A stretch of DNA of 64,000 bases, taken from the NCBI GenBank assembly GCA_965198095.1, contig OZ240239.1, forward strand, positions 1,018,816 through 1,082,815. The letters run 5' to 3'. The DNA comes from Candidatus Latescibacterota bacterium. Lineage in GTDB: Bacteria > Latescibacterota > UBA2968 > GCA-2709665. How positions within the stretch are numbered: position 1 is the first letter of the stretch; each line of letters starts with the position of its first letter. The notes under the pieces were generated by a model that saw only the letters and a program-made list of their open reading frames with translations, was not told the origin of the DNA and made no database searches. Made by a program: the position numbers and the translations under genes. Positions 10,335 through 51,108 of the stretch are shown here, piece after piece.

Positions 10335-10433
10335 GTGCGTCAGCGCCAATGGTATCTGCGCGCCTACGTTCCCGGCATCTGCCGGCCTCCCACACCTCTG
10401 ATCGGAACGTTGAGACCAGGAAAGGAAGGCATC

Positions 10434-13400: not shown

Positions 13401-13667
13401 AACCTCCAACTCCTGTGGCTTGGCAATAATGCGTTGAGTGGTTCGATCCCGTCCGAATTGGGCAACCTGTCCAACCTTGTGCACCTGTTTCTTAACGATA
13501 ATTCGTCCTTGACGGGCCCACTTCCACAGAGCCTGACGGGGCTTAAAAAGCTACAGCACTTTCATTTTCATAACACGGGGCTTTGCGCGCCGCTCGATGG
13601 CGCATTTCAGACGTGGCTTCAGGGCATTGGAGACGCCAATGGCTCAAACTGCGCTTCCTCCGACTGA
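10434..13667 (+). CDS. Large secreted leucine-rich-repeat protein: N-terminal dockerin-like pair followed by four tandem plant-type LRR modules
   Basis: GTG start after GAAAGGAAGG. Signal peptide VRPFAIFILLAFVGQASA. DFDWDFDVDFADFLAFVSVFG and DMDGSGAIDFADFVTFAGVFG are dockerin-like. Each of the four modules starts DRDALVALYHATDGDSWTDKTNWLTD.DLSTWHGVTVSDGRVT.L (an LRRNT-like cap). The cap is followed by 24-residue repeats L.GNNLSGSIPSELGNLSNL and ends LTGTLPQSLTRLTNLK.FHFHNTGLC.PLD.AFQTWL.G.EDA.GS.C. Confidence 0.85.
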   Translation: MRPFAIFILLAFVGQASADPNGETGGSASTAVISSTRFPGDFDWDFDVDFADFLAFVSVFGKTSADAGYNPRMDMDGSGAIDFADFVTFAGVFGRTYTRPPWAADRDALIALYHATDGDSWTDRTNWLTDTDLWTWYGVRVSDGRVTRLQLDENNLSGSIPSELSDLSNLRGLWLYDNALSGPIPSELSNLSNLRGLSLGNNALSGSIPSELGNLSNLTSLWLYGNALSGSIPSELGNLSNLRSLLLSGNELSGSIPSELGNLSNLTSLSLGANALSGPIPSELGNLSNLLDLSLSNNTLSGSIPSELGNLSNLGSLWLHVNALSGPIPTELGNLSNLAQLLLNDNTSLTGTLPQSLTRLTNLKTFHFHNTGLCVPLDDAFQTWLKGMEDARGSTCPGGGTLSTDRDALVALYHATDGDSWTDKTNWLTDADLSTWHGVTVSDGRVTRVQLDGNNLSGTTPAALGNLSNLTDLLLNNNTSLTGTLPQRLTRLTNLKRLYFHNTGICARLEGAFQTWFQGIEDARGSTCPDRDALVALYHATDGDSWTHKTNWLTDTDLSTWHRVTVSDGRVTQLLLYRNNLRGSIPSELGNLSSLTDLLLDGNALSGSISSELGNLSRLEALWLSDNALSGPISSELGNLSSLRELRLSGNALSGSIPSELGNLSNLRSLSLAGNALNGSIPSELGNLSNLAFLHLQGNALSGSIPSELGNLSNLVFLHLHGNALSGSIPSELGNLPSLNSLLLNDNLHLTGTLPHSLTRLTNLRYFRFQNTGLCAPLDRAFQTWLHGIENTNGSNCSGEGTLSTDRDALVALYNSTDGDSWTDRANWLTDTDLSTWRGVTVSNGRVTRLGLDENNLSGSIPPALGNLSNLEALQLVGNALSGPILSELGNLSILETLVLSRNALSGPIPSELGNLSFLRFLLLSGNALSGPIPSELGNLSILRILELSANALSGPIPSELGNLSNLGDLFLDHNALSGPIPPALGNLSNLQLLWLGNNALSGSIPSELGNLSNLVHLFLNDNSSLTGPLPQSLTGLKKLQHFHFHNTGLCAPLDGAFQTWLQGIGDANGSNCASSD
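10745..13660 (+). repeat. Intragenic tandem repeats: 72-bp LRR units nested in four ~0.4-0.9 kb module duplications
   Basis: Near-identical DNA blocks (gggcaacctgtccaacctt...ggcaacgcgttgagtggttcgatcccgtccgaactg) recur dozens of times. Module starts are near 10745, 11646, 12019 and 12853. Confidence 0.8.
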
Positions 13668-14118
13668 CCCGCGCCGTCGCCCATAGGCCGGGTCACGGTC
13701 TCATATATCCTCATCAATAGGGATGAGTTTGGAGATGACCCAGGGTTTGGGGGCTTCGCATTAGCCTTGATTCGAAAAAAACAAGCAATCCACAACTTCG
13801 TAAGGCCGTGAGAAATGTGGAATTACCTCAGCTAAAATGCACTGTTTTTCTGTTCACATCCCGTGAACTAAAGAATGGCCGAATGGTGACGTAAAGACGC
13901 CTTTGTTCTTCTGGACAAATCCCAGAGAACACCGCCGAGATATTTCGAATCAAGGTTAGTGTTTGGGCCACCCATTTTCGGTCTCATGGACGCCGGTGCC
14001 GGCTGATTCCGGGGCTATGTCTGCCGGAGGCGCTCCTCGCAGGGGTGGTCCTGGCTCCCCCCTATCCCGATTCAGTGCCCTGAGCGACGCGACGCACGCG
14101 CTGCGTTTGCCCGCAGTC

Positions 14119-16466: not shown

Positions 16467-18176
16467 TCAATCAGCGCTTCGTTCGGCCGCGTCTGAGACC
16501 CCGGCACTGTCGCCGGCGGGCGCTTCCACGTCCAGAAACCCGCCCTTCAATTTTTCGCGTGCCACTTCGGAAAACTCGGACATCGGATATCGATCGATCA
16601 ATCGCTGATATTGGGCTCTGGCCAGATCGGGCGTGTTACGCTCGTTCTCATAGAACCACGCCAGAGCGTAGATGGCCTTCGCCGCATAGAGGGTATTGGG
16701 GAAGTCGGCTGCGATTTGTCTGAAAAGAGCCATCGCCTCTTCCAGCGTCGCCCCGTCCTGCCGCAGCGCCTCTGCCCGATGGAAACGTGCCTGGGCCTCG
16801 GCCTCCTGCGTCCCTTCCTCCAGAATTCGCTTCCGGGCCGAAACCGCGAACGGGCTGGCCGGGTAGCGTTCGACCAGCTGGCCAAAGTAACGACGAGCCG
16901 CGGTGTCGTCTTTCAGCGTGTCGGCGTAGACGAGACCCAGTGCGTACAGGGCCTTGGGAGCGGCGTCGGAGGTGTCGGCCGCCTTCAGAACCCGATCGTA
17001 GACCGCCACGGCGGAGTCGGGTTCCGAGAGCCCGAAGAGGTAGAGCTCGGCCAAATTGAAGGAGGCTTCAATCCCCTTCTTGCCCTTCTTTTGCGAAGCC
17101 TTTTCATATCGTTTCAGATCGGAGAGCAGTTTCTCGCGCATCCGGACCAGCCCGGCGGCCTCCGAACCTGACTTCTCCCTTTTCGCCATCTGAAAGTGCT
17201 CTTTTGCCGAGGCGTGATCCTTCCGGTGCTGAAGCGCGATCAGCCCCATCTCGTAGTATGCGAAAGCGCTGTGTTCCGTGTGGGGCAGGTTCTTCGTGAT
17301 CTGCGCGTATATCCGTTCTGCGGTTTCGAACGCTTCCATGGACGTGTGGACATTTGCCTGCCTTAGACGAACGTCTCCTTCGTAAGACCGAAAGCGTTTG
17401 ATCTTCAGGATCTTCCCGTAGACCTCCAGGGCCTCCTGGAATCTGTGCTGCAACTCCAACGTCCGCCCGAGCCGAAGCCGGGTGAGGTAGTCCGTGCCGA
17501 TATCCGGTCCGGACTTCAAGACCTGCTCGTAGGCTGCCGCTGCCTCGTCGTAACGTTGCTGGTTGAAAGCGGCGTTTCCGATGCCGCTCCAGATTTTTGC
17601 CTTCAGCTTTTTCTCCTTCTCATATTCCGAGAGCAGCTGCTTGTAGGCATCGATCGCGGCCTGGTAGTTCTCCTGGTCGGATTCCAGCTCTGCCAGGGAG
17701 ATGCGTGCCTCCTTGGTAAAATGCCCACCCTCGACATTTCCGATCTCAACAAAGATGTCACGTGCGCCGTCGATTCGGCCCTCGGCGCGGAGGGCCAGGC
17801 CGCGCCAGTAATAGGCCTCTTCGACCAGGTCGCTTTCCGGAAAGTTCTCAGCGAGCTCCTGGAACTTCAACACGGCTTCGTCGTGAATCTCCCGCCAGTA
17901 AAAGGCCTTGCCGATGAGCAGCAGCGCATCGTCTACCCATTTGCTGTCGGGATGCCTGTCCAGCACGATGGAGGCCTTGCGGATGGCGTTCATGTAAAGC
18001 TTCTTGTATGCCTGAGACCTCCGGCTCCTGTCGGAGCGGGTTTCCGTTTCACGACGTTTCCGATCGGCGTCATCGAACTGTTTGCGCGCGTTGTAGAACG
18101 TGTTGAAGTAGACGCATCCGGAAAGGAAGGTCAGCGCGGCCAAAGGCCATAGTCTTCGAAGGGCGTTCATCCGCAC
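16467..18176 (-). CDS. Tetratricopeptide-repeat lipoprotein
   Basis: Lipoprotein signal MRMNALRRLWPLAALTFLSGC, followed by many TPR-like helical repeats. Confidence 0.7.
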   Translation of the reverse strand: MRMNALRRLWPLAALTFLSGCVYFNTFYNARKQFDDADRKRRETETRSDRSRRSQAYKKLYMNAIRKASIVLDRHPDSKWVDDALLLIGKAFYWREIHDEAVLKFQELAENFPESDLVEEAYYWRGLALRAEGRIDGARDIFVEIGNVEGGHFTKEARISLAELESDQENYQAAIDAYKQLLSEYEKEKKLKAKIWSGIGNAAFNQQRYDEAAAAYEQVLKSGPDIGTDYLTRLRLGRTLELQHRFQEALEVYGKILKIKRFRSYEGDVRLRQANVHTSMEAFETAERIYAQITKNLPHTEHSAFAYYEMGLIALQHRKDHASAKEHFQMAKREKSGSEAAGLVRMREKLLSDLKRYEKASQKKGKKGIEASFNLAELYLFGLSEPDSAVAVYDRVLKAADTSDAAPKALYALGLVYADTLKDDTAARRYFGQLVERYPASPFAVSARKRILEEGTQEAEAQARFHRAEALRQDGATLEEAMALFRQIAADFPNTLYAAKAIYALAWFYENERNTPDLARAQYQRLIDRYPMSEFSEVAREKLKGGFLDVEAPAGDSAGVSDAAERSAD

Positions 18177-19996
18177 CGCGCGGCCTTTCCTTGATGGAAT
18201 TCCTGAAGCGTGCGGACACGGATGGATTCGTCCTTCTTCTGAGATTCGATTCCGGCGACGGCTGCGGCGGCCCCGGCGAGCGTGGTCGTGTAGGGGATGC
18301 CGTACTGGAGGGCAGCCCGTCGAATCTGGAGGTCGTAAGCCTGGGACTTTTCGCCGGCGGGCGTGTTGACCATGAGGTCGATCCTCTTGTTCTTTATGGC
18401 GTCCACGACGTGGGGCCGCCCCTCCTGTATTTTGAAGGTACGTTCGGCGGGGATCCCCCGGGCCGCCAGGAACGACTGGGTGCCCTGCGTCGACAGGATC
18501 CGGAAACCGAGCGCCACGAGGCGCCGGGCCACGGGCAGCACGGCGGCCTTGTCCCGATCGTTCACGCTTACGAAGACGGTTCCCTCACAGGGCAATCGCA
18601 CGCCCGCGCCGAGCTGGGCCTTGTGAAAGCTGAGCCCAAAGTCGGTGTCGATCCCCATGACCTCGCCGGTGGATTTCATTTCCGGGCCAAGAAGCGTATC
18701 TACGCCCGGGAACTTGATGAAGGGCAGGACCGCCTCCTTGACGGCGATGTGATCGATGACGATGTCGTCAGGAATCTCTTGCTCTTTGAGCGTCCTTCCG
18801 ACCACCGCCCGCGCCGCGACCTTGCCCAGCGGGATGCCGATCGCCTTGCTGACGAAGGGAACGGTGCGGGAAGCCCTGGGGTTGACCTCCAGGACGTAGA
18901 CCTCCTCATTCTGAATCGCGTATTGTACGTTGATCAGACCGACCACCTGAAGGGCGCGCGCCAGGGCCCGCGTATGTCTTTTGAGCTCGTCGAGGTTGTC
19001 ATCCGAAATCCTGTATGGGGGCAGCACGCACGCGCTGTCTCCGGAGTGGATGCCGGCGCTCTCGATATGTTGCATGATTCCGCCGATGATGACGGCAGAC
19101 CGATCGCTCACGGCATCGACGTCGAACTCGTGGGCGTCTTCCAGGAAGCGGTCGATGAGAACGGGATGCTCGGGCGACGTCCGAATCGCTTCTTCCATGT
19201 AGCTCAGGAGCGCCTCCGTCTCGTAGACGATGACCATGGCGCGACCTCCCAGGACATAGGAGGGGCGCACCAGCACCGGATAGCCGATCGATTCCGCGAC
19301 GGCGACGGCCTCGTCCGTGCTCGTTGCCGTGCCGTTTTCGGGCTGTCGGAGGCCAAGTTCATCGATGAGGTTGCCGAACCGCTCCCGGTCCTCCGCGAGA
19401 TCGATGCTTTCCGGAGAGGTGCCCAGGATCTTCAGTCCGGCCCGCTCCAGATCGTGGGCGAGATTCAACGGCGTCTGTCCACCGAACTGAACGATGGCCC
19501 CGTCGGGCGCTTCCGCATCCGCGATGTTGAGGACATCTTCCGCGGTCACGGGCTCGAAGTAGAGTTTGTCGGACGTATCGTAGTCCGTGCTGACGGTCTC
19601 GGGGTTGGAATTGACCATGATGGTCTCGAAACCGTCCTCTCTCAGCGCGAAAGAGGCGTGAACGCAGCAATAGTCGAACTCGATCCCCTGTCCGATGCGG
19701 TTTGGGCCGCTGCCCAGGATCATGATCTTCTTCCGTTTGGACCGAACCACTTCGGTTTCGGTCTCGTAGGTCGAAAAATGGTAGGGCGTGTAGGCCTCGA
19801 ATTCAGCCGCGCAGGTATCCACCGTCTTAAACGTGGCAACGACGCCGAGTTCTTTCCTGAGTGCCCTCACCGTCCATTCGTCGGTTTGCCACAGATGGGC
19901 AAGCTGCCGGTCGCTGAAGCCGGATTGCTTGGCCTTGAGCAGGATCTCCCGGCCGATTCCGGCTCTCAGGTCATTCAGGGCGCGGGTTCTTTTCAT
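18167..19996 (-). CDS. carB: Carbamoyl-phosphate synthase large subunit, C-terminal segment (end of the oligomerisation domain, second ATP-grasp, MGS-like domain)
   Basis: LNDLRAGIGREILLKAKQSGFSDRQLAHL...FKTVDTCAAEF...IMILGSGPNRIGQGIEFDYCCVH continues CarB colinearly from about E. coli residue 485. The track start at 20014 is a TTG codon, so the ATG at 19994-19996 is also a possible start. Confidence 0.85.
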   Translation of the reverse strand: MKRTRALNDLRAGIGREILLKAKQSGFSDRQLAHLWQTDEWTVRALRKELGVVATFKTVDTCAAEFEAYTPYHFSTYETETEVVRSKRKKIMILGSGPNRIGQGIEFDYCCVHASFALREDGFETIMVNSNPETVSTDYDTSDKLYFEPVTAEDVLNIADAEAPDGAIVQFGGQTPLNLAHDLERAGLKILGTSPESIDLAEDRERFGNLIDELGLRQPENGTATSTDEAVAVAESIGYPVLVRPSYVLGGRAMVIVYETEALLSYMEEAIRTSPEHPVLIDRFLEDAHEFDVDAVSDRSAVIIGGIMQHIESAGIHSGDSACVLPPYRISDDNLDELKRHTRALARALQVVGLINVQYAIQNEEVYVLEVNPRASRTVPFVSKAIGIPLGKVAARAVVGRTLKEQEIPDDIVIDHIAVKEAVLPFIKFPGVDTLLGPEMKSTGEVMGIDTDFGLSFHKAQLGAGVRLPCEGTVFVSVNDRDKAAVLPVARRLVALGFRILSTQGTQSFLAARGIPAERTFKIQEGRPHVVDAIKNKRIDLMVNTPAGEKSQAYDLQIRRAALQYGIPYTTTLAGAAAAVAGIESQKKDESIRVRTLQEFHQGKAARCG

Positions 19997-24694: not shown

Positions 24695-25190
24695 TTATTT
24701 GTATAAATCTTGAGTCACGTCCGAAAAAGGTGTTATAGGTCATCATAAGGATTCAGCATCATGGGCGGTCAACGTATCTGAGGTTTTGCGGCTGAGTCGG
24801 TAGATTGCGTCTTCAGGCGGTCCGTCGATACCTGGACTCTCCTCTCGAGGCCCTCCCGCTGGCGCGGGTCCAGGATATATAAGGTCTGGGAGGCTATGAT
24901 GAGCAAATATTGGCAGGTAGCGGCGGGATCAAGTGGGAGAGATTACTCGAGAGAATTTCTTAAATTCGGAATCGCCTTTGTTGGGGGTGAAAGACATGGG
25001 AGATATTGTTATACTGAATATGTTTTGACCCCTGTCAAGGGCTCCGATGCCTGCGGGCGGTTGAATGATGCCCAGGTGGATCCGGGTGCCTGCCCTCCCT
25101 GACGTCTGCTTATCAGGCCTTTACGACGCGTCGCCCGCGTTCGGTGCCTGTGGTCTTGTTCTGGGGGACGTGGGAGAATGGGCCGATTGA

Positions 25191-25421
25191 TTGGAGAAAA
25201 GTATGAGTGTTGAGTTCATCAGCATCGTAGCGGTGGGAGTAGCCTTGGCCGGGGTGATCCTGGCCAGCAGTCGCGGGGTGCGGCAGGACATGCGGCGTCT
25301 GGATGAGAGGATCGGCGGGCTGGAGTCCCAGATTGGCGAACTGCGCGAGCGCATGGCGCATCTTGAAGGATTGCTTGAAGGATTGCGGGAGGCTGTCACC
25401 GGACGGGCCAGGGCCAGCTAA
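25191..25421 (+). CDS. Small hypothetical membrane protein with a coiled-coil tail
   Basis: 76 aa, with a TM helix ISIVAVGVALAGVILA followed by a heptad-like RLDERIGGLESQIGELRERMAHLEGLLEGL. Coding status is uncertain. Confidence 0.3.
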   Translation: MEKSMSVEFISIVAVGVALAGVILASSRGVRQDMRRLDERIGGLESQIGELRERMAHLEGLLEGLREAVTGRARAS

Positions 25422-25658
25422 GGCCGCCCTTGGCGAGGCGTCGGCGCTCCAGACAACCAACATTGAAAGCCATTTGGAGCCATGAAGCGTAAACGAGACG
25501 GATTGGTTTCCATTCGGGGATGCTCTCTCTGATCCGGGCGGGCCGGTGAAGGCGATCCGCGAAGCCTTCCCATGCGCTTCACCTGCTTCGACCAAGTGAA
25601 CCAGGGGCCGGAAGTCACAAACTATCTGCAACATCTCCGCCAATTTTCGATCGACGCC

Positions 25659-27296: not shown

Positions 27297-29000
27297 ATGC
27301 CAGCGCGCGACGTAAAAGTCCGTCCGGAGGAGGCGGCATCCGATTTCATCCGCGACGCGATCCGTGAGGACCTTCGAACGGGTCGTTGCGATGGCGTGAT
27401 GACGCGGTTTCCGCCCGAGCCGAACGGATATCTGCACATCGGTCACGCCAAGCCGATCTGCTTGAACTTCTGGATTGCCGAGGAGTTCGGCGGGGTCTGC
27501 AACCTCCGCTTCGACGACACGAACCCCCTCAAGGAGGAAGAGGAATACGTCGATGCCATTATGAAAGACATCCGGTGGCTCGGGTTCGACTGGGGCGGTC
27601 ATCTCTACTTCGCGTCGGACTACTTTGAGCAGCTTCACGCGTTTGCGGCCACACTGATCGAAGCGGGAAAGGCCTTTGTATGCGACCTCGGTCCCGAGGA
27701 GGTCCGGGACTACCGGGGCACCCTGACCCGGCCCGGGCGCGAGAGTCCGTTTCGCAGCCGGTCGGTGGAGGAGAACCTGGATCTGTTCGCTCGGATGCGG
27801 GCCGGGGAGTGTCCGGACGGGTCGCGTACGCTCCGGGCCAAGATCGACATGGCATCGCCCAACATGAACATGCGGGATCCGGTGATGTACCGAATTATCC
27901 GCGCCTCTCACCATCGTACGGGGGATCGGTGGCGCATCTATCCCATGTACGACTTCGCTCACGGACAGTCGGATTCCATCGAGGGTGTGACGCATTCACT
28001 CTGTTCGGGAGAGTATGAGGATCATCGCCCCCTGTATGACTGGTTCATAAGGGAGTTGAAGATCTTTCCCTCCCGGCAGATCGAGTTTCCCAAGCTGTTC
28101 CTCACCTATACGATGGTGAGCAAGCGGCGGCTGCGGCGTTTGGTAGACGAAGGATACGTGATGGGCTGGGACGATCCGCGGATGGCAACGCTGGCCGGGA
28201 TGCGCCGGAGAGGGGTGCCGCCCGAAGCGATCCGAACCTTCGTGCGACGCGTCGGGATGACCAAACGGGATACGACGGCTGAGATCGAGCTGTTGGAGCA
28301 CCACATCCGCGAATCCTTGAATTTCAGCGCGTCCCGCGTGATGGGGGTGATCGATCCGCTGCGCGTCGTGATCGAAAACTACCCGGAGGGGAAAAGCGAG
28401 GAGATCGAGGCGATCAACAACCCGGAAGATCCCTCCGCCGGCACGCGCAAGGTCCCCTTCTCGCGGGTTCTCTACATCGAGCGCGATGATTTCATGGAAG
28501 ACCCGCCGCGGAGGTTTTACCGACTCGCGCCCGGGCGGGAGGTCCGCCTCCGCTATGCCTATCTCATTACGTGCAGGGAGGCGGTACACGACGAGAACGG
28601 CGAGGTGGTGGCGCTCAAATGTACGTATGACCCGGAGACGCGGGGCGGAGACGCACCCGACGGACGGAAGGTGAAGGCGACCCTGCACTGGGTGTCCGCC
28701 GAGCACGCGGCAAAGGTGGAAGTGAGGCTTTACGACCGGCTGTTCCGCGTGGAGAATCCGATGGAGACGCCCGAGGGCGGTGACTGGATCGACAACCTGA
28801 ATCCGGATTCCCTCGAGGTCCGTTCGGACTGCTACGTGGAGCCGAGCGTCAAAGGGGCGGCGCCGGGCTATCGGTGCCAGTTCGAGCGGCTCGGCTACTT
28901 CTGTGTCGATTCCGATTCGTCGGAAGACGGCCTGGTGTTCAACCGGACCGTCACGCTTCGGGATGCGTGGGCAAGGATGGCAAAGCGGAGAAAAGGTTAG
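27297..29000 (+). CDS. glnS: Glutaminyl-tRNA synthetase
   Basis: [29 protein letters not shown] (HIGH) and VMSKR (KMSKS), with a GlnRS-type anticodon-binding C-terminal domain. The antisense ORF 27996-29051 is rejected. Confidence 0.9.
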
Positions 29001-29022
29001 CCTGAATAATTCATAACCTGAA

Positions 29023-29730
29023 TCATTCATAAAAAAGGTTAGGAAAGTCACTCGTACTCACCTTTTCTTGCCGCCCAAGAAAAGGTGACAAAAGAAGGGC
29101 GCCTGCCTGCCGCGCCCAACGCGGCGCAGGCAGGCCCCTCAAACGCCGGGGAGGCTCGGGCCGTGGCGACTCAGCCTCACTGGAAACGACCGGCGCCGCG
29201 AAAGGAATGAACTCCTCCCCCCGCCTGATGCCCACTGCGGGACCCGCCCCCACACCGCGAATTTCCATTCGCCCCCACATCCGCCCCCGCACCTGACCCC
29301 GTCCCACAGAGGGCCCCCTAACCCCTGGGGAGGAGAAACGCGGAAGCAGTTGGAGAGCCACAACGCCACGGCCGCGATGACATCTGGCCCGAATCACTCC
29401 TGAAATCTGCAAAATCTGCGTAAATACCGGGCCTTCCCGCGCCCTTCGATACACCCGAGAGACCGTTCGCCTATGATGAGCTGAGCATCTCGCTGATTGG
29501 GCACTCAGGGACACGGGGGCTTCTCTACTTGCCGCAACTCCTGCGACTCGCTCTTCGAAACCGGCCCCGTTCGTGTCGAGTGCCCGCCTGGGGGCAGGAG
29601 GGTGTCAACGATATAGTTAGGAAAGTCACTCATACTCACCTTTTCTTTGCTCGCTAAGGAGAGCACGATACGGCTGACACGATACACCCCTGTCATACGC
29701 GGAAATGATGTCAACGATTTACCGCTCCCG
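29023..29730. repeat. Mosaic intergenic repeat, copy A (BIME-like; sub-motifs X, Y, T plus a 35-bp direct repeat)
   Basis: Segment X (29130-29440) and segment Y (29441-29625) recur at 61141-61440 and 60990-61140. Y also recurs at 55424-55600. The tail T (29661-29730) recurs inverted at 60770-60836. ggttaggaaagtcactc.tactcaccttttctt occurs at both 29036 and 29626. Confidence 0.7.
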
Positions 29731-29858
29731 GTCATATCTCGCGATTCGCGTCGCTCGCAGACATGGGCGGGTGAACTTCCGTGATCTTTCGGCGTTTGCT
29801 CAGAGCTTCGGGAACCACGTGATTCGGTAACGCCAGACGTTGAGAAATGTAATCGGCC

Positions 29859-29885
29859 CCGGGACATCCCGTCCCGGGGCCGATC
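29859..29885. terminator. Perfect 11-bp-stem hairpin downstream of vapC
   Basis: GGCCCCGGGAC-atcc-cGTCCCGGGGCC. It lies between the repeat and the convergent 3' end of vapC. Confidence 0.4.
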
Positions 29886-29905
29886 TCTTCAGCATTTCCT
29901 TTGCG

Positions 29906-30325
29906 TTACAACCTCATGATTTTTAGGAATTCCCCGGCGTTGTAGACTGCGATTCGGGCGGACTTATAGTCTTTTTTGTTTCGCGTGATGAGGAATTTCA
30001 ATCTGCCTTCGATCGCGGCGTGGTATTGTAGCGCATCTTCAAAGTCCGTGAAGTCGGATTCCAATGCGTTTTCGACCGTTCTTTGGGTCACGGGAAGGAT
30101 CGTAAGCAGGTGTTTCAGGTCGGAGAGAATACGCAAGGCATCACGGTTCGACTTCAGTTTGCGCAAGATATAGTAGAGGTTGGCGAACGTAACCGCCGTG
30201 ACAAAACCCTCAATTTCCCGGACCTCCATGCGAGAGAAAAACCTTTGGGCATCGGCAGCGTGCGGTTCGCGCCGTGCCAACAGGTCCAATAGGATGTCGG
30301 TATCGATCAGTGCCCGATGTTTCAC
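29906..30325 (-). CDS. vapC: PIN-domain ribonuclease toxin
   Basis: 139 aa with a PIN acidic quartet context (LIDTDILLDLL ... ITRNKKDY). It overlaps the upstream antitoxin gene by 4 nt. Confidence 0.8.
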   Translation of the reverse strand: MKHRALIDTDILLDLLARREPHAADAQRFFSRMEVREIEGFVTAVTFANLYYILRKLKSNRDALRILSDLKHLLTILPVTQRTVENALESDFTDFEDALQYHAAIEGRLKFLITRNKKDYKSARIAVYNAGEFLKIMRL

Positions 30326-30573
30326 TCGTGCTTTCTGAGCAAGTAGCCTGTGATGGCTTCTTTTTCGTCCAGGTCCGGAATCGCACGCAACACGCCCGAC
30401 AACCGATTCACACGAGGCGTGATTTCGTCATCCGCGTCCTTTTTCTCACCGGTGACAATGGCTCGAAGCAAGTTCTCGATCAGTCTTGAGAGGCTTTGGT
30501 TCTGCTGCCTGGCATATCTCTTGGCTTTGTCGATGACTTCCTTTTCCAGCTTCAGCGTCAGCTTTGCGTCCAT
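30322..30573 (-). CDS. vapB: Type II antitoxin partner of VapC (VapB-like)
   Basis: 83 aa, KLEKEVIDKAKRYARQQNQSLSRLIENLL. Genes of this small-antitoxin family precede PIN toxin genes. Confidence 0.6.
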   Translation of the reverse strand: MDAKLTLKLEKEVIDKAKRYARQQNQSLSRLIENLLRAIVTGEKKDADDEITPRVNRLSGVLRAIPDLDEKEAITGYLLRKHE

Positions 30574-39396: not shown

Positions 39397-40485
39397 CTAC
39401 GGCGGACTCCAGACCTCTTTCAAGAGCCGGATCCAGTTTCCGGAGAGGATGTTTCGGACATCTTCGTCGGCGTATCCCCTGCGTTCGAAGATCGCTCTGA
39501 ACTTTTGGAGGTCTTGACTCGTGTTGAAGTCGCGCGGGGCCTGTTCGGTGCCGAAACCGGCGTCCACGTCGGTGCCGAGTCCGGCGTGGCGGGCGTTGCC
39601 CGCGACCTCGCAGACGTGGTCGATGTGATCGGCAACCGTCTCGAGGGTCGCTCTGGTTGTTTGTTTATACGGTGCGGTCGTGTGTTGCCACTCCGTGTCC
39701 AACATCCAGGCATCGAATGCGGAACCGATCACGCCCCCTCTTTCGATCACGGCCCTCAGCATGTCGTCGCTGAGCTGGCGCTGGTCGGGCACGAGGGCGC
39801 GGCAGTTGCAGTGGGAGGCGACCACGGGTCCGTCATAGACGTCGAGGAGCTCCCAGAAAGATTGGTCGGTCAGGTGGGTGAGATCGACGATGATGCCGAG
39901 TTCGCTGAAGGCGTCCAGGAGCGGCTTGGCGGGCGGGAGCAGGCCCCCCTCCGTGCCGCTGCCGTGGGCATAGCTGGTGACGCCGTAGTGAGAGAGGCTG
40001 GCGATGCGGAGTCCCGTGTCGTACCACTCCCGGACGTGATCGGGATCCAGGATCGGGTCGCATCCTTCGAGCGCGAGGACGAGGCCGATCGGCGTATCGG
40101 GCGCGGGGGCCTCCCAGCCGGCGACGACGTCATCCAGGTCCTGCGCGGACCGGACGATTCGGATCACGCCTTCTCTTTCCATGGCGTGGTAGTAGGCGGC
40201 GTGGCCGTAGGCGATGCCGTAACACTGCGCCTGGGTGTAGCACCCGATTCGGGTCCAGTTGTCTTTCGGGGCCAACCGGGCGGTCGCGGTCGCGATGACG
40301 AGCCCGACGTGGCCCTTGTGGAGCTCGTGGAATGTGGTCGTGCTGCTCCCGTAGGTCTCCATGACCTTCGGCGTGTCGTGGGTGCGCACGGTTGTCGCCG
40401 GCTGGGTGAGGTCGCGGTTGGCGTGCAGCGCGGTGAAGGCGAGGTCGAGATGACCGTCGGCGATGAGGATGGGGTTTTCAGTCAA
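39397..40485 (-). CDS. Membrane (renal-type) dipeptidase, peptidase family M19 - paralog 1
   Basis: ADGHLDLAF, a DLTHL-type metal site, ASHCNCRAL and GTDVDAGFG. ~75% identical to paralog 2. Confidence 0.85.
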   Translation of the reverse strand: MTENPILIADGHLDLAFTALHANRDLTQPATTVRTHDTPKVMETYGSSTTTFHELHKGHVGLVIATATARLAPKDNWTRIGCYTQAQCYGIAYGHAAYYHAMEREGVIRIVRSAQDLDDVVAGWEAPAPDTPIGLVLALEGCDPILDPDHVREWYDTGLRIASLSHYGVTSYAHGSGTEGGLLPPAKPLLDAFSELGIIVDLTHLTDQSFWELLDVYDGPVVASHCNCRALVPDQRQLSDDMLRAVIERGGVIGSAFDAWMLDTEWQHTTAPYKQTTRATLETVADHIDHVCEVAGNARHAGLGTDVDAGFGTEQAPRDFNTSQDLQKFRAIFERRGYADEDVRNILSGNWIRLLKEVWSPP

Positions 40486-40568
40486 GGGTCGCGTCTCCCC
40501 GATGCCTGGGCTGAAGGGTGTGTTCCTCGAAGATTGGATATGGACTGTTCGACGCTCTTCCTCAGCGG

Positions 40569-41669
40569 CTACGTGCTGCCTTCCTTCTCGCTCCAGGCGG
40601 CCTTCAAGAGCCGGATCCAGTTCCCCGACAGGATGTTCCCGACTTCTTCGTGCGAGTAGCCTCTGCGCGCGAAGATTTCCGCGAATTTCCGGAGATCCGC
40701 GATCGTGTTGAGGTCGCGCGGGGACTGCTCCGTGCCGTAGCCGCCGTCCAGGTCGGTTCCGATGGCGGCGTGGCGCGCGTTGCCGGCGAGGTCGCAGACG
40801 TGGTCGACGTGATCGGCGACCGTCTGGAGGGTCGCGTTCGTGATCTGTTCATAAGCCGGTCGCTCGTGGCCCCACTCCGGGTCCAGCATCCAGACGTCGA
40901 ACGCGGCACCGATCACGCCGCCCCGTTCGATGATCGACTTGATCATGTCGTCGCTGAGCTGGCGCTGGTTGGGGACGAGGGCGCGGCAGTTGCTGTGGGA
41001 GGCGAGCACGGGGCCGTCGTAGACGTCCAGGAGCTCCCAGTGAGACGGGTCGCTGAGGTGGGTGAGGTCGACGATGATGCCGGCCTCCCGGAAGGCGTCC
41101 AGGAGGGGCCTGGCCGTGGGCAGCAGGCCGCCCTCCGTACCGGTGCCGTGGGCGTAGCGGCTCACGCCGTAGTGTGTCAGGCCGGCCACGCGCACGCCCA
41201 GGTCGTACCACTCCCGAACCTGTTCGGGATCCCGAATGCCGTCGCAGCCTTCAAAGGCCAGCACCAGGCCGATCGGGGTGTCCGGGGCCGGATCTTCCCA
41301 GCTCGCGACGACCCGATCCAGGTCCTGAGCCGAGCGGACGATCCGGATCACGCCTTCCCGCTCCATCGCTTGATAGTAGGCGATGTGGCCCCTGACGACG
41401 CCGTAGCACTGGGTCTGGTCGTACATGCCGAGCCCGGTCCAGTTGTCCTTGGGCCCGACCTTGGCTGTCGCGGTCCCGAAGACGAGCCCGACGTGTCCCT
41501 TTCTGAGCTCGTGGAAACTGACCGTGCAGCTTCCGAAGGTCCGCATCACCGCCGGCGCATCGTGCGTGCGGATCGTGGCCGCCGGAACCGTGAGGTCGCG
41601 GTTGACCTGAAGGGCGCTGAAGGCGAGGTCGAGATGGCTGTCGGCGATCAGCGCGGGTCTGTCAGGCAT
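40569..41669 (-). CDS. Membrane dipeptidase M19 - paralog 2
   Basis: Colinear with paralog 1 (IADSHLDLAF...ASHSNCRAL...GTDLDGGYG). The start codon lies ~20 bp from tandem-repeat block 1. Confidence 0.85.
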   Translation of the reverse strand: MPDRPALIADSHLDLAFSALQVNRDLTVPAATIRTHDAPAVMRTFGSCTVSFHELRKGHVGLVFGTATAKVGPKDNWTGLGMYDQTQCYGVVRGHIAYYQAMEREGVIRIVRSAQDLDRVVASWEDPAPDTPIGLVLAFEGCDGIRDPEQVREWYDLGVRVAGLTHYGVSRYAHGTGTEGGLLPTARPLLDAFREAGIIVDLTHLSDPSHWELLDVYDGPVLASHSNCRALVPNQRQLSDDMIKSIIERGGVIGAAFDVWMLDPEWGHERPAYEQITNATLQTVADHVDHVCDLAGNARHAAIGTDLDGGYGTEQSPRDLNTIADLRKFAEIFARRGYSHEEVGNILSGNWIRLLKAAWSEKEGST

Positions 41670-41689
41670 AAGACCCTCGTTTCAAGAAA

Positions 41690-42500
41690 GGTGTAGGAGC
41701 CAACTCCGTTGGCGAAGCAAAAAGATTGCGGATTTGTTTTGCACTCATCCAATGGCCACTCATAGGGTCGGTAGAGGCGCACACCGCGATCAGATGGTTC
41801 GCCGTCGGGAGCCTGTCCTGAGCAAGCGTCAGCGAGTCGAAGGGACGGCTCCTACCGGATTATTGGGCCTATTGGATTCACCGATGTCATAACGTCCCAT
41901 ATCCGGTAGGAGCCAACTCCTGTTGGCGAAGCAAAAGATGGCGACTTGCTTTGCGCCGATCCAATAAGCCAACTCCGTTGGCGAAGCAAAAGATGGCGAC
42001 TTGCTTTGCGCCGATCCAATGGCCACCCATAGGGTCGGTAGAGGCGTACACCGCGATCAGATGGTTCGCCGTCGGGAGCCTGTCCTGAGCAAGCGTCAGC
42101 GAGTCGAAGGGACGGCTCCTACCGGATTATTGGGCCCAATGGATTCACCGATGTCATAACGTCCCATATCCGGTAGGAGCCAACTCCTGTTGGCGAAGCA
42201 AAAGATGGCGACTTGCTTTGCGCCGATCCAATAAGCCAACTCCGTTGGCGAAGCCGAAGATGGCGATTTGTTTTGCACCAGTCCAATGGCCACTCATGGT
42301 CGGTAGAGGCGTACACCGCGATCAGATGGTTCGCCGTCGGGAGCCTGTCCTGAGCAAGCGTCAGCGAGTCGAAGGGACGGCTCCTACCGGATTGTTGGGC
42401 CTAATGGATTCACCGATGTCATAACGTCCCATATCCGGTAGGAGCCAACTCCTGTTGGCGAAGCAATAGATGGCGATTTGTTTTGCGCCGATCCGATGGC
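41690..42500. repeat. Composite tandem repeat block 1 (three units of S ~55 bp plus L ~155 bp)
   Basis: The S unit is gagccaactcc(t)gttggcgaagc.aaagatggcga.ttg.tttgc.c.gatccaat. The L unit is ggccac.catagggtcggtagaggcg.acaccgcgatcagatggttcgccgtcgggagcctgtcctgagcaagcgtcagcgagtcgaagggacggctcctaccggattattgggcc.a.tggattcaccgatgtcataacgtcccatatccggtag. The block fills the whole interval between the paralog-3 stop and the paralog-2 start. Confidence 0.85.
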
Positions 42501-42502
42501 CA

Positions 42503-43627
42503 TCACTGCCACGCCTCCCTGAACAGCCGAACCGTGTTGCCGTGGGCGATCTTCGCGACGTCCTCCTCGCCATATCCCCGTTGACGCAGGATGTCCAGGA
42601 ACTTCTGCAGGTCGGCGATGGTGTCCATGTCGGTGGGCGCGTACTCTCGCCCGAACCCGCCGTCCAGGTCGGACCCGATGGCCACGTGATCGGCGTTTCC
42701 CGCGAGCTGGCAGATGTGATCGACGTGGTCCACGACGGCGTTCATGGGTCGCGTGGAAGCGGGCGGAACGCGGTCCGAGTCGATCCACGCCGGGTTGAGA
42801 AACCTTTCGACGAAGACGACGCCGATCACGCCGCCACGCTCGCAGAGTGTCTTGATCACGTCGTCACTCAAGAGGCGCTGAATCGGAACGAGGGCGCGGC
42901 AGTTGCAGTGGCTGGCGTGGATCGGTCCGTCCCAGCGGTCCAGGATCTGACGGAGGGCCAAGTCGGCGGCGTGGGTGACGTCCAGAACGATTCCGGCGGC
43001 GCGCAGCGCGTCCATCAGCGGAAATGCGGGGGGATAGAGCCCTCCGACGGTGCGCGTTCCGTGGCCGTAGGTGTTGGCCCCGTAGTGGGTGAGGGAGACG
43101 GCGCGGAGCCCGGCTTCCCACCAGTCTTCCACATTTTCCAGACCGAGGATCGGGTCGGCGCTCTCCATCGTGAGGATGAGGCCGATGGGCGTCTCAGGCG
43201 TCGGATGCGCCCACTCCGCGACAGAGGCATCCAGGTCCGCCACCGACTTGATGAACCGGATCTGCCCGTCTCGTTCCAGGGCGCGGTAGTAGGCCAAGTG
43301 GCCCATGGCCCGCGCGTATGCCGCGGCCTGCGTGCGGTCCGTATTGCCCGACGTCGGACCCGGCTCCTGCACCCGCGCCATGATCGTCCCGAGCGCGATG
43401 CCGACGTGTCCCTTCCGCATGTCGGGAAACGAGACCGTGGCGATGCCTTTGCCGACGTCGGCCCACGGATCGTGGCGGACCAGGACGGCTTCCGGGTCGG
43501 CGGTGGGCCCGAGGAGGAAACCGTCTTCCCGCTCGCGAAGGGTATCGACCGACTGGGTGAGATCGCGGCGGTGAAAGAGGGCGTTGTGCGCCAGGTCGAG
43601 GTGGCCGTCTATGATGAGGGTAGACAT
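42503..43627 (-). CDS. Membrane dipeptidase M19 - paralog 3
   Basis: IIDGHLDLAHN...ASHCNCRAL...GSDLDGGFG. More diverged from paralogs 1 and 2, and close to paralog 4. Confidence 0.85.
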   Translation of the reverse strand: MSTLIIDGHLDLAHNALFHRRDLTQSVDTLREREDGFLLGPTADPEAVLVRHDPWADVGKGIATVSFPDMRKGHVGIALGTIMARVQEPGPTSGNTDRTQAAAYARAMGHLAYYRALERDGQIRFIKSVADLDASVAEWAHPTPETPIGLILTMESADPILGLENVEDWWEAGLRAVSLTHYGANTYGHGTRTVGGLYPPAFPLMDALRAAGIVLDVTHAADLALRQILDRWDGPIHASHCNCRALVPIQRLLSDDVIKTLCERGGVIGVVFVERFLNPAWIDSDRVPPASTRPMNAVVDHVDHICQLAGNADHVAIGSDLDGGFGREYAPTDMDTIADLQKFLDILRQRGYGEEDVAKIAHGNTVRLFREAWQ

Positions 43628-43844
43628 AAAGCCGCCGGGAACGGGTACCGGGGACCCAAAACACGGGTACCGGGTACAGAAAGGCCGTTGTTCGTCGCTT
43701 GTCGTTCCGTCGTTCGCAGAAGTTGGATCACGAGACTACACGAAGCGCACGAAAAAATTGACAATGAATGTCGAACCGCGGAATACCGAATGTGGTGACA
43801 GCTGGACCACAGGCCACAGATTCCTTGTATCACAACCCCAACTC

Positions 43845-44875
43845 ACGCCCCATATCCGGTAGGAGCCAACTCCGTTGGCGAAGCCGAAGATGGCCGTATA
43901 TTATGCCGCCTAGCCAATGGCCAACTCCTGTTGGCGAAGCAAGAGATAGCGATTTGTTTTGCGCCAGTCCAATGGCCACTCATAGGGTCAGTAGAGGCGT
44001 ACACCGCGATCAGATGGTTCGCCGTCGGGAGCCTGTCCTGAGCAAGCGTCAGCGAGTCGAAGGGACGGCTCCTACCGGATTATTGGGCCCAATGGATTCA
44101 CCGATGTCATAACGTCCCATATCCGGTAGGAGCCAACTCCGTTGGCGAAGCCGAAGATGGCGATTTGTTTTGCACTCATCCAATGGCCAACTCCGTTGGC
44201 GAAGCCGAAGATGGCCGTATATTATGCCGCCTAGCCAATGGCCACTCATAGGGTCAGCAGAGGCGCACACCGCGATCAGATGGTTCGCCGTCGGGAGCCT
44301 GTCCTGAGCAAGCGTCAGCGAGTCGAAGGGACGGCTCCTACCGGATTGTTGGGCCTAATGGATTCACCGATGTCATAACGTCCCAAATCCGGTAGGAGCC
44401 AACTCCGTTGGCGAAGCCGAAGATGGCCGTATATTATGCCGCCTAGCCAATGGCCAACTCCTGTTGGCGAAGCAAGAGATAGCGATTTGTTTTGCGCCAG
44501 TCCAATGGCCACTCATAGGGTCGGTAGAGGCGCACACCGCGATCAGATGGTTCGCCGTCGGGAGCCTGTCCTGAGCAAGCGTCAGCGAGTCGAAGGGACG
44601 GCTCCTACCGGATTATTGGGCCTAATGGATTCACCGATGTCATAACGTCCCAAATCCGGTAGGAGCCAACTCCGTTGGCGAAGCCGAAGATAGCGATTTG
44701 TTTTGCACTCATCCAATGGCCACTCATAGGGTCGATAGAGGCGTACACCGCGATCAGATGGTTCGCCGTCGGGAGCCTGTCCTGAGCAAGCGTCAGCGAG
44801 TCGAAGGGACGGCTCATACCGGATTGTTGGGCCTATTGGATTCACCGATGCCATCGTGATGCGAGGCAGAAAACC
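43845..44875. repeat. Composite tandem repeat block 2 (four L units interleaved with two S variants)
   Basis: Same S and L families as block 1. One S variant carries the AT-rich insert ccgtatattatgccgcctagcc. The block runs from ~220 bp upstream of paralog 3 to the stop codon of paralog 4. Confidence 0.85.
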
Positions 44876-44884
44876 TCGGATGAA

Positions 44885-46006
44885 TCACTGCCACGCATTC
44901 CTGAACAGGCGCAGCGTGTTGCCGTGGGCGATCTTGGCCACGTCTTCCTCACCGTATCCACGCCGTCTCAGGACGTCCAGGAAGTTCTGCAGGTCGGCGA
45001 TGGTGTCCAGGTCGCAGGGGGACTTCTCGCGTCCGAACCCGCCGTCCAGATCGGACCCGATGGCGACGTGATCGGCATTTCCGGTGAGCTGACAGATGTG
45101 GTCGACGTGCTCGACGATGGCGCTCATCGGTCGGGTGAGGCCGGGCGCGGGTCCGAACATGTGCACATTCGGGTTGACGAACGTTTCGGCGAAGACCATG
45201 CCGATCACGGCGTCGCGCTCGCAGAGCGCCTTGATCATTTCATCCGTCAACAGCCGCTGGACCGGGACGAGGGCGCGGCAGTTGCAGTGGCTGGCGTGGA
45301 CCGGTCCGTCCCAGTATTCCAGCAGCTGCCAGAAGACGAGGTCGGAGGCGTGGGTCACGTCCAGCAGGACGCCCGCGTCGCGCAGGGCGTCCAGGAGCGG
45401 GTATGCGGGGGTATAGAGTCCGCCTTCGGTGCCCGTGCCGTGGCCGTAGGTGTTGGCCCCGAAATGGGTGAGCGAGACGGATCGGAGCCCGGCTTTCCAC
45501 CAGTCTTCCACATTTTCCGGCCCGAGGATCGGGTCGGCCCCTTCCATGGTGAGGATCAGGCCGACCGGCGTCTCAGGCGTCGGATGCTCCCACTCGGCAA
45601 CAGAGGCATCGAGATCTTCCGCGGATTTGATGAACCGGACTTCGCCCTCCCGCTCCAGGGCCTGGTAGTAGGCCAGATGGGAAATCCCCTGCGCGTGGGC
45701 GACGGCCTGTGTTCGCACGGAGTTGTGGCTGTCCGGACCGGGCAGCTGGATGCGGGACATGATCGTAATCAGCCCGATGCCGACGTGCCCCCTTCGCATG
45801 TCGGGGAGAGAGACCGTGGGAACGCCGTGCTCCTTGTCTTTCCAAGCGTCTTCCTTGACGAGGACCGCTTCCGGATCGGCGGAGGGGCCGCGCAGGAGGA
45901 CGTCTTCCCGTTCGCGGAGGACCCTTGCAGGCTGCCTCTGGTCGCGGCGATTGAAGAGGCCGTTGAAAGCCAGGTCGAGGTGGCCGTCTATGATGAGGGT
46001 AGACAT
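44885..46006 (-). CDS. Membrane dipeptidase M19 - paralog 4
   Basis: IIDGHLDLAFN...ASHCNCRAL...GSDLDGGFG. The long antisense ORFs 39361-46279 (plus strand) are rejected. Confidence 0.85.
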   Translation of the reverse strand: MSTLIIDGHLDLAFNGLFNRRDQRQPARVLREREDVLLRGPSADPEAVLVKEDAWKDKEHGVPTVSLPDMRRGHVGIGLITIMSRIQLPGPDSHNSVRTQAVAHAQGISHLAYYQALEREGEVRFIKSAEDLDASVAEWEHPTPETPVGLILTMEGADPILGPENVEDWWKAGLRSVSLTHFGANTYGHGTGTEGGLYTPAYPLLDALRDAGVLLDVTHASDLVFWQLLEYWDGPVHASHCNCRALVPVQRLLTDEMIKALCERDAVIGMVFAETFVNPNVHMFGPAPGLTRPMSAIVEHVDHICQLTGNADHVAIGSDLDGGFGREKSPCDLDTIADLQNFLDVLRRRGYGEEDVAKIAHGNTLRLFRNAWQ

Positions 46007-46124
46007 AGAGCCGTTGGCAGCGGGTACCGGGGCACCAGAACACGGGTACCGGGTACCGAAAGGCCGTTGTCCGTCGCTTGTCGTTCCGTCATTCGCAAAA
46101 GTTGCATCACAAGCCTATCTCACA

Positions 46125-46435
46125 CCCCGCATCCGGTAGGAGCCAACTCCTGTTGGCGAAGCAATAGGTGGCGACGTGGGGTGCGCCGATCCAATGGCCG
46201 TCTCCCTGTTGGCGAAGCAATAGGTGGCGACGTGGGGTGCGCCGATCCAATGGCCGTCTCCCTGTTGGCGAAGCAATAGGTGGCGACGTGGGGTGCGCCG
46301 ATCCAATGGCCGTCTCCCGACGGCGACGCAATAGGTGGCGACGTGGGGTGCGCCGATCCAATGGCCGTCTCCCGACGGCGACGCAAAAGATGGCGATTTG
46401 TTTTGCACCGATCCGATGGCGCCGGTTTTGGTGGT
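46125..46435. repeat. Tandem repeat block 3 (about five ~58-bp S-like units)
   Basis: ctgttggcgaagcaataggtggcgacgtggggtgcgccgatccaatggccgtctcc repeats three times, followed by two diverged copies. It starts with the same atccggtaggagccaactcc junction as blocks 1 and 2. Confidence 0.8.
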
Positions 46436-46718
46436 ACCGACCCCTCGATACGATCCCCCGCGCCGCGGCCCGCAGCCGCTGCTCGGGATCACCTAGGGAT
46501 GCGGTAGACATGCTCTTCGTGGAGCAGGTTCCCAGCTTCAGGAGGTGCTAAGCTAATACGCCGCATCTGTGATCGCAAGGGCGAAAGAGACCGCTTTTCT
46601 GCCCAAATTTCGTTGACAGGTCTCGCAAAGTCGCTTACTTTTTCGCCGGGGCCGGGGTCAACGTTCCACGAGATCCTGATCTCGGCACTTCTGTATCCAG
46701 TCCAGCGCCTGCGGTTGG

Positions 46719-46795
46719 TCGGGGCGTGGCTCAGTCCGGTAGAGCACCTGCTTTGGGAGCAGGGGGTCGTGGGTTCAAATCCCGCCGCCCCGACC
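46719..46795 (+). tRNA. tRNA-Pro (anticodon TGG), CCA encoded
   Basis: CGGGGCGTGGCTCAGTCCGGTAGAGCACCTGCTTTGGGAGCAGGGGGTCGTGGGTTCAAATCCCGCCGCCCCGACCA. The minus ORF 46489-47166 across it is rejected. Confidence 0.85.
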
Positions 46796-47180
46796 AAAAG
46801 AAACGGCACCCACAAGAACCCTTGACGGTCTTTAGGAACCTGCTTATCGTAATCTCGACACAGATCCGCGCACCGCTCGTTATTCTTCACACGAAAGGGG
46901 GATGCGAAATGAACCTCATTTATCTGATCGCGGCGTCCCCGGGTGGTTTTATGTAGACTCTGATTCACAGGGTCAAACGATTCAGGCTTTGATTCATGCC
47001 AAAGGCAGAGTTGGAGGTCGTCCGAGGGGGCGGCCTCCTTTCTTTTTGCTTCGAGCCAAGGATGCGCAGCATCCCGTCGATTCCGCTCGGGCAGGCGCAA
47101 TGTTCCTTGGGCGGTGGGACCCCGTCCAAATCGCCGGTTTGACCCCAGGTCGGGGCGCCACCGCAAACAAGCAAGAGGGA

Positions 47181-47957: not shown

Positions 47958-48630
47958 GGCAAAGCAGACAAGAGCAGCGGGCGACCCATCGCGCCGGGAG
48001 GCGGGTGGCTGAACGTCACCGCAGGCGCAGACAATCGCGGTCTCGATGGCGGCCCCGGCCCCCGAGGGCTATCCGAGGCTCACCCTCGCCGGGCTTTTGG
48101 CCCGTGCGAATCACACTTCGAGGTCCATTCCGTAAGCCGTACACGCGTCGGCGAGACGGCCGCGACCGACTTCCTTGCCTGCGTTGTTGGCGCTCCGCCT
48201 GCGCGAGCCACCGAGGGACGGCGCCTCGGATCCTGCGCTCGTCGATCATTCGAGAGAAACCCGGACTTGAAAGGCGCTGATATATATAAAAATTATACCT
48301 TTTCTATACATATTTTTTAACACAAATTGTATGGAACGTTTCCGGGCACCGCAGGACGCGGAGCCTTGGCGTGGAATCAGGGCATGGTTTCGTGTAACGT
48401 TATCTCGTCACTGATGACCACTCCGGACTTCCCGCGTCCCGAGACCGGAATTGCTTCCAGCGCTCCTTTTCACGCCGTAGATCCAGGTCCGAGAAGAACC
48501 GCGGAAAGTAGGCTTCGGCAGGATGGCCGATCCCAATGGCTCGCATCTTGAATTCCACAGCCGAGTTGGGTATACTTCTGTACTTCTCGCCTATCGTCAA
48601 CAATGTTAAGTCACGCAATGGAGGTTTGAA

Positions 48631-51107: not shown

Positions 51108-51108
51108 T

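Follow-up and report, generated by a model that had tools for sequence, protein, structure and literature searches.

Intergenic mosaic repeats of a Latescibacterota genome are probably the remains of small MITE-like elements

MITEs are usually shorter than about 300 bp and measure at most about 600 bp. BOX of Streptococcus pneumoniae is a modular intergenic element made up of boxA, a variable number of boxB, and boxC, and its means of mobilization is unknown. The Correia elements of Neisseria have regulatory effects in the literature that involve promoters and RNA processing; nothing comparable is shown for the repeats described here. Correia elements also carry an IHF motif (PMC2229807). RUP provides the precedent for a bacterial MITE mobilized by IS630 (PMC2229807), and IS630-family elements duplicate TA, with IS630 itself preferring CTAG, according to PMC2170065, which cites Tenzen & Ohtsubo 1991. 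BIMEs are built of REP palindromes of 20–40 bp that alternate regularly in orientation and are tied to RAYT (PMC2817692).

Here we analyze a 64-kb stretch of the genome of an uncultured Candidatus Latescibacterota bacterium (64,000 nucleotides, hereafter the window) that carries three intergenic repeat modules, X, Y and T. We consider it very probable that these modules are the non-coding remains of small non-autonomous MITE-like elements and not a BIME, genes or RNAs. The family is ordinary and of a known kind, bacterial MITEs: it consists of lineage-restricted MITE-like elements together with their fused, tandemly amplified debris. Its mildly unusual traits are self-targeting at one CTAG, a variable array of a 540-bp unit and a RAYT module carried as cargo.

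BOX resembles X, Y and T in being modular and intergenic but, compared by description, has modules of 45–59 bp and lacks TA-flanked ends of the E type defined below. A close likeness is to RUP and the IS630-type bacterial MITEs, which are also non-coding and intergenic, have inverted-repeat ends, insert at TA and tend to land in other mobile elements (PMC2229807); the TA duplication and CTAG preference of IS630-family chemistry, as given in PMC2170065, recur here as well. RUP differs in its length of 107 bp and in having ends that match a known IS (IS630-Spn1), whereas the units here measure 0.2–0.7 kb, several internal bodies share one end type, and the fusion of pieces has produced a 540-bp unit that is amplified in tandem. 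Correia/NEMIS elements likewise have TA at their termini and inverted repeats at their ends, occupy intergenic sites beside the starts and ends of genes, and include variants with internal deletions (PMC2229807), but Correia elements are 107–155 bp long.

The modules occur at three loci whose flanking genes were assigned via Pfam. Locus A lies between GlnRS (+ strand, ending at 29000) and a PIN toxin gene (− strand, 29906–30325), locus B between a glyoxalase gene (− strand, start 60713) and the gene of an RDD protein (− strand, stop 61537–61539), and locus C between a HisG-like gene (− strand, start ~55339, confirmed in L020) and an N-acetyltransferase gene (− strand, stop 55599). The window was compared with loci from related assemblies, L001–L020; the census sample comprises the 64-kb window and a dozen loci of 12–22 kb, several of them orthologous or overlapping. 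L001 and L002 represent a sister strain at locus A (GlnRS 99% identical), and L003, with a GlnRS that is 78% identical, is syntenic with locus A. The closest named GlnRS homologues, at ~73% identity, are labelled Gemmatimonadota.

The initial annotation had described X, Y and T as a shuffled, BIME-like mosaic. Every repeat that it listed was reproduced by self-comparison of the window with blastn. Searching with 28950–29950, X (29127–29437) matched 61137–61445 at 92% identity (E 5e-105), Y (29430–29575) matched 55430–55574 at 86% (E 2e-38), and Y with its junction (29466–29635) matched 60980–61154 at 82% (E 5e-38). T (29658–29732) matched the reverse complement of 60765–60839 within the window at 96% (E 2e-23), which confirms its inversion between loci A and B. 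The order of modules also stands: X-Y-T at 29 kb, T'-Y-X at 61 kb and a lone Y at 55.4 kb. Features that had been missed are a 32-bp direct repeat (29038–29069 = 29616–29647, 97%), an element terminus at 29000–29037 and a third, partial T at 55340–55354. Assembly duplication, which the initial annotation had named as a refuting outcome, does not account for the copies: they share 82–96% identity, differ in their flanks and turn up again in assemblies made independently. They do form a modular non-coding interspersed family, with modules in varied combinations and orientations, but this organization does not make them a BIME. BIMEs are of high copy number (over 100 per genome); in the loci sampled here, each module was present at only a handful of independent sites.

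The features of locus A are listed below. The ~540-bp unit to which most of them belong is written Y-j-R-h1-(h2)-X5'-X3', where j is the junction, R the 32-bp repeat, and h1 and h2 are hairpins, the second of which is absent in some copies.

28998–29000, + strand: GlnRS stop codon TAG in the sequence, with TA as the insertion target and G as the first base of the element
29000–29037, + strand: left terminus of an E-family element, GCCTGAATAATTCA, TA, then ACCTGAATCATTCATAAAAAAG
29038–29069, + strand: R1, a 32-bp segment and direct repeat of R2 (97% match)
29058–29139, + strand: near-perfect hairpins h1 (29058–29088) and h2 (29096–29139), folding z = −6.0 and −5.5
29127–29349, + strand: X5', the element body up to the CTAG site, which is degenerate here (CAGTTGG); from blastn
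29350–29437, + strand: X3', the remainder of X after the CTAG site, joined to Y at the 8-mer GGCYTTCC; from sequence comparison
29430–29600, + strand: Y, A-type 5' part and core, containing an imperfect long hairpin with arms at 29499–29506/29578–29585
29597–29615, + strand: junction j (GGGTGTCAACGATATA), ending in TA, read from the sequence
29616–29647, + strand: R2, start of a second, truncated unit; blastn match to R1
29656–29741, + strand: T, an imperfectly palindromic module of ~80 bp, unstructured as RNA; from blastn
29762–29830, + strand: remnant of a DUF2330/dockerin-tail gene, its last ~20 codons and stop; tblastn with the L003 protein

Loci B and C and a solo terminus contain the following.

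50976–50992, + strand: solo E-type terminus, TA then GGCTGAATCATTCAT, adjoining the RAYT module
55340–55354, − strand: 15-nt fragment that comes from the start of T and immediately precedes the HisG-like gene's ATG
55363–55410, + strand: fragment of the Y 3' end that precedes the principal Y copy; also conserved in L018 and L020
55413–55574, + strand: Y copy of locus C, truncated before the 3' hairpin arm; the zero-unit allele of a variable array, from blastn
60765–60850, − strand: T copy whose end lies ~50 nt from the start codon of glyoxalase, on the upstream side
60858–60945, + strand: 87-nt insert with two hairpins and flanking GTGGCAC direct repeats, absent from the L015 copy
60945–61136, + strand: Y (B-type 5' part and core) and junction j, with TGTCAACGAT at 61122–61131
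61137–61445, + strand: X copy without the terminus, R, h1 and the left arm of h2, with CTAG intact at 61358–61361
61446–61539, + strand: AT-rich segment closing with ATTCAGGT and a TA that belongs to the RDD stop codon; possibly a short right terminus

A 39-nt hairpin-containing segment at 2185–2223 is 90% identical to 60907–60945 within the 87-nt insert of locus B, and the pair is another small dispersed repeat.

Comparison with four related strains identifies X, together with the upstream sequence 29000–29126, as what is evidently the body of an E-family element with NCCTGAATNATTCA ends flanked by TA. E-type termini are preceded by TA in nine of nine cases from five assemblies, two of them in the window (29000 and 50976–50992), so that the comparison of flanks proposed in the initial annotation did yield a target-site signature. 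A terminus like that at 29000 is also found at L001 17613, L015 11100 and L016 9050; in the window it contains a 16-bp tandem duplication without a counterpart in the sister strain. NCCTGAATNATTCA inverted repeats bound the complete L001 and L016 copies on both sides, and likewise a 390-bp insert in L018. The complete two-ended copy at L001 17611–19511 reads TA-GCCTGAATAATTCAT...ATGATTCAGGA-TA, the second such copy is L016 9048–9706, and the solo terminus at 50976–50992 corresponds to one end of a two-ended element in L016. At the site equivalent to the possible right terminus of locus B, L016 and L020 have TA followed by ACCTGAATA. Members of the E family measure 205–390 bp, while the X-type body exceeds 430 bp and has only a 9–11-bp match at 61530–61537 as its putative right end. 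Coding capacity is absent from the family, the exception being an E-type copy with a RAYT remnant as cargo.

In L001 the equivalent of window 29014–29349, which includes X5', is present twice in inverted orientation (17611–17915 and 19174–19509) around a DDE_3 gene that belongs to an IS630-family IS. We considered X as a long terminal repeat of this IS and rejected it: a relative with a 3.79-Mb assembly has only the 1258-bp IS (equivalent to L001 17916–19173, ~90% nucleotide identity) without X arms, and the arms are also lacking from another copy of the IS in L014, from the window's own species. The bare IS in the 3.79-Mb relative indicates, therefore, that the L001 IS landed at the central CTAG of an X-based inverted structure. 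The ends of the IS630-family IS (L001 17916–19173; L004–L015) are GTGGYCSATTTC, not GCCTGAATAATTCAT, and a transposase gene with GCCTGAATAATTCAT ends was not found in the window and the loci sampled, which represent a fraction of the genome. For the X-type element at locus A, an empty site was not found in the two other assemblies sampled (L001, L002), both of which carry the element. The TA-flanked inverted-repeat ends point to cut-and-paste transposition of the DDE type, IS630/Tc1-mariner-like, and mobilization of the E family would depend on a transposase acting in trans.

The stop codons of GlnRS (TAG, 28998–29000) and RDD (TAA, 61537–61539) each combine the target TA with the first base of the terminus of the inserted element, which thus completes the stop codons of two genes. 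In the 3.79-Mb relative, E-type ends stand back to back at L011 17932–17952 in the palindrome TAA-CCTGAATAATTCAGG-TTA, which might represent either a minimal element or the footprint of an excision.

X retains an intact CTAG at window 61358–61361 and a degenerate one at locus A; in other strains this site has received independent insertions by four different mobile elements. It is occupied by the 1258-bp IS630-family IS in L001, by a 209-bp MITE at locus C of L016, and by an E-type element with a RAYT remnant at locus B of L016. At locus B of L018 the sequence is CTC-TA-(GCCTGCAAAATTCAC...390 bp...TTAATCAGGC)-TA-GCTG, with E-type ends, and together with the uninterrupted CTAG of the window it forms a clean filled/empty pair with duplication of TA. 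The inserts at this CTAG differ by strain (L001, L016, L018), a presence/absence polymorphism. In L020, the X copies of loci B and C are both interrupted by a DUF772 IS, inserted at the same TTAG. CTAG and TTAG in X evidently act as a landing pad for other TA-targeting elements.

The window also contains a complete ~205-bp MITE at 13763–13966, TA-GCCTTGATTCGAAA...TTCGAATCAAGGT-TA, of which the L016 insert at the CTAG of X is a 73%-identical copy. It lies downstream of an ORF of ~1110 aa (10335–13667) in which 72-nt (24-aa) tandem repeats, 19 of them altogether, form three blocks. At L015 5642–5980, a Y copy is interrupted by ~340 bp of inserted sequence, apparently with a direct repeat of AGTTGCAGG on either side; judged by eye, the G/C-rich hairpins inside this insertion seem to resemble those of the 390-bp E-type element of L018.

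X and Y have evidently been joined at an 8-bp microhomology into the ~540-bp unit, since X3' meets Y at the shared 8-mer GGCYTTCC. Complete Y-j-R-h1-X units are present in L016, L018 and L020, and at locus C their number varies from zero in the window, which has one Y, to one in L016 and L020 and two in L018. The single unit of L016 reads Y-j-R-h1-X5'-X3'-Y and contains the 209-bp MITE, and that of L020 contains the DUF772 IS. L018 has two full units followed by Y, with 9766–10438 and 10305–10981 93% identical at an offset of ~540 bp; this array was found by blastn, its period of 540 exceeding the TRF limit of 500. Locus A consists of the terminus, one unit and the start of a second (R2). At locus B, X comes after the last part of a unit (Y-j), and L018 and L020 keep R and h1 there, which the window has lost together with half of h2. 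The unit is periodic at ~540 bp and present in zero to two copies by strain; X-Y and Y-X are thus, in all likelihood, a single array read in two registers, and the shuffled order proposed in the initial annotation is apparent only. The array would grow and shrink by unequal homologous recombination, with X-Y at locus A and Y-X at locus B representing registers trimmed by deletions.

T is a module of ~80 bp with imperfectly inverted halves. Motif TGTCAACGAT occurs four times in the window against 0.19 expected; it recurs as reported, but not consistently at module junctions, with two of the four copies inside T where there is no junction. At locus B two copies are inverted ~350 bp apart, the left one preceded by TA, and the right copy precedes TC at locus B but TA at locus A. 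A second TA-targeting element, with ends that carry TGTCAACGAT, may comprise Y and most of T, a reading based on few copies, with TA-flanked ends that are clear only at locus B; the predicted ends are TA-AATCGTTGACA...TGTCAACGATA-TA. The 8-bp inverted repeats GGGCACTC/GAGTGCCC that had been described as the termini of Y are present at 29499–29506/29578–29585 and 61013–61020/61098–61105, but they are not terminal: Y homology extends beyond the arms by ~70 nt on the 5' side and ~30 nt on the 3' side, and the 55.4-kb copy lacks the second arm. All copies are intergenic, as claimed; they do not all sit at gene 3' ends, since T occupies the 5' side of a gene at two loci, B (~50 nt upstream of the start of glyoxalase) and C (as a 15-nt fragment abutting the start codon of the HisG-like gene).

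Locus A is, by all appearances, a deletion scar. In L003, a DUF2330 gene of 567 aa lies downstream of GlnRS. The window retains the last ~20 codons of this gene (29762–29821; 13 of 20 residues identical, E 1e-4, tblastn with the L003 protein), its stop codon (29828–30) and a terminator hairpin, and the rest has evidently been lost. After the PIN toxin gene (Pfam) comes an ORF with a DUF6364 annotation on its L001 orthologue; together (29906–30573) they are a probable toxin-antitoxin pair. They are convergent with GlnRS and replace the genes present at the equivalent position of L003. The sister strain (L001/L002) has the same X-Y-T at locus A, with a 25-bp deletion in X and other indels.

Exact matches were not found for the Y core in 185,579 species-representative genomes or JGI metagenomes, for the X core in the same 185,579 genomes or viral contigs, or for the T core in JGI metagenomes. 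Locus A gave no blastn match in plasmids, and X, Y and T were absent from 200 kb of the 3.79-Mb relative. Based on these searches, the family looks restricted to the species group; the window's own species lies outside the collections scanned.

We next weigh the readings that compete with MITE-like remains, of which conservation for function is unlikely. It would make the modules cis-regulatory or small-RNA elements, with Y a structured RNA, h1 and h2 terminators, and T a promoter or leader. The hairpins h1 and h2 are indeed very stable (z ~ −6), and T ends ~50 nt before the start codons of two unrelated genes, the window's glyoxalase gene and, in L015, a MoCoBD gene, with the T fragment adjoining the start of the HisG-like gene. 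RNA structure prediction, which had been suggested for Y, folds its core as a long hairpin with z from −0.8 to −3.4, but five copies show no covariation (covariation term +0.6), and substitutions break pairs in some of them. Given the modest z-scores and the lack of covariation, Y as a structured RNA was rejected. Rfam, at gathering and permissive thresholds, returned only tRNAs and chance miRNA-like matches. T is unstructured (z = 0) and has no sigma-70-type promoter match, on which ground a promoter role was also rejected; in L001, T is oriented into the 3' end of a gene that converges on it. Moreover, the orientation of Y varies relative to T and the flanking genes, copies tolerate IS and MITE insertions, the 25-bp deletion and the loss of h2, and copy number varies by strain. 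If the modules are MITE-like remains, effects on neighboring genes would be a by-product, with three candidates: the last base in each of two stop codons, the hairpins that follow GlnRS, and T where it lies ~50 nt ahead of two genes that are unrelated.

A true BIME/REP system, in which REP-type palindromes are spread by the RAYT tyrosine transposase encoded at 51109–51684, is very unlikely. The resemblance to BIME/REP/REPIN-RAYT systems lies in interspersed intergenic mosaics of modules and in a RAYT-like gene with flanking hairpins in the window. This gene, on the minus strand, matches Pfam Y1_Tnp (E 2.9e-5) and NCBIfam REP_Tyr_transpos (E 4e-18), although its NCBIfam score of 65.6 is below the cutoff of 80 bits. 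Inverted GGGCAGACATTCCTGTCTGCCC hairpins flank it at 51086–51107 and 51767–51788, and at L016 a deleted copy of the RAYT module lies inside an E-type element adjoining X3'. The hairpin, however, occurs only twice in the window and not at all in X, Y, T or the other loci, and BIME membership fails on this absence. BIMEs consist of alternating 20–40-bp REPs (PMC2817692), whereas X, Y and T contain no REP, are modules of 80–310 bp and show no regular alternation: the ~540-bp units are direct tandem repeats, and only T is inverted between loci. X is also flanked by TA-bounded inverted repeats, ends that are unlike the action of a Y1/HUH transposase. The BIME identity given in the initial annotation is abandoned here.

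The RAYT module itself (window 51080–51794) has a REPtron-like layout. The RAYT cluster comprises several paralogues per genome, of 161–264 aa, and the module therefore seems to be multi-copy. The copy at L016 9048–9706 is a complete TA-flanked E-type element with the RAYT module in its interior; both hairpins are present, and ~440 bp of the gene is deleted. The module lies in a region (46800–55000) that may be a genomic island: G+C falls to 54–59% directly after a tRNA-Pro gene (46720–46796), and the content includes a RIO1-like kinase, an EamA transporter and an HTH protein. On the other side of the tRNA, and ending beside it, is an array at 39400–46500 of four paralogous genes of ~365 aa, spaced 1.2–2.4 kb apart and interleaved with 55-nt repeat arrays (16 copies, containing CCAACTCCTGTTGG) and a 267-nt repeat; a related array is present in L017. 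Downstream of two tRNA-Ser genes, the ~0.9 kb at 24706–25637 does not align with the ~6.5 kb at L001 1861–8339, which includes a 1216-aa S8 peptidase with fn3, cadherin and dockerin domains.

Integron-like cassettes, or a circular element integrated by site-specific recombination at a GTTAGG-type core at the j/R boundary, are extremely unlikely. The unit boundaries (G/TTAGGA or GTCAGG) resemble a GTTRRRY core, the neighbors are cassette-like (glyoxalase, N-acetyltransferases, PIN toxin), and the order is circularly permuted, but an integrase was not found among the ORFs scanned near the loci (part of the window), nor was an inverse core at attC distance. The unit contains no gene, its outer ends are TA-flanked inverted repeats, and homologous recombination is a simpler account of tandem copy-number change. 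We found no supporting feature for an integron/attC reading of the GTTAGG boundary and rejected it. Descent of X, Y and T from a decayed protein-coding gene family has negligible probability: open frames of 100–163 aa cross X on the minus strand at loci A and B, but the frame differs between the copies through 1–2-nt frameshifting indels, an orthologous X copy has the 25-bp deletion, ORFs over X have no Pfam match, and a 607-aa chimeric query (open frames and selected partial frame translations of X, Y and T) found no homologue among 5.8 billion proteins.

The reading as MITE-like remains removes a tempting mis-annotation, as mosaic repeats do not equal a BIME, and illustrates how a tandem unit read in different registers can mimic a shuffled module order. 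The loci are hypervariable intergenic sites that differ in every strain sampled and are useful as strain markers, and one CTAG displays a transposon landing-pad effect. The occurrence of a RAYT module between TA-flanked inverted repeats is a point of interest for mobile-DNA specialists. A broader view of the E family is tentative and, in our judgment, rather doubtful: a self-targeting, lineage-restricted MITE system with a pad that channels at least five elements harmlessly, with macro-arrays and with RAYT-REP capture. If it is true, the CTAG/TTAG of X would be a preferred pad that diverts insertions to harmless intergenic sites, the X-Y fusion would build strain-variable tandem macro-arrays, and a tyrosine-transposase gene would ride a TA-targeting DDE-type vehicle by way of the captured RAYT-REP module.
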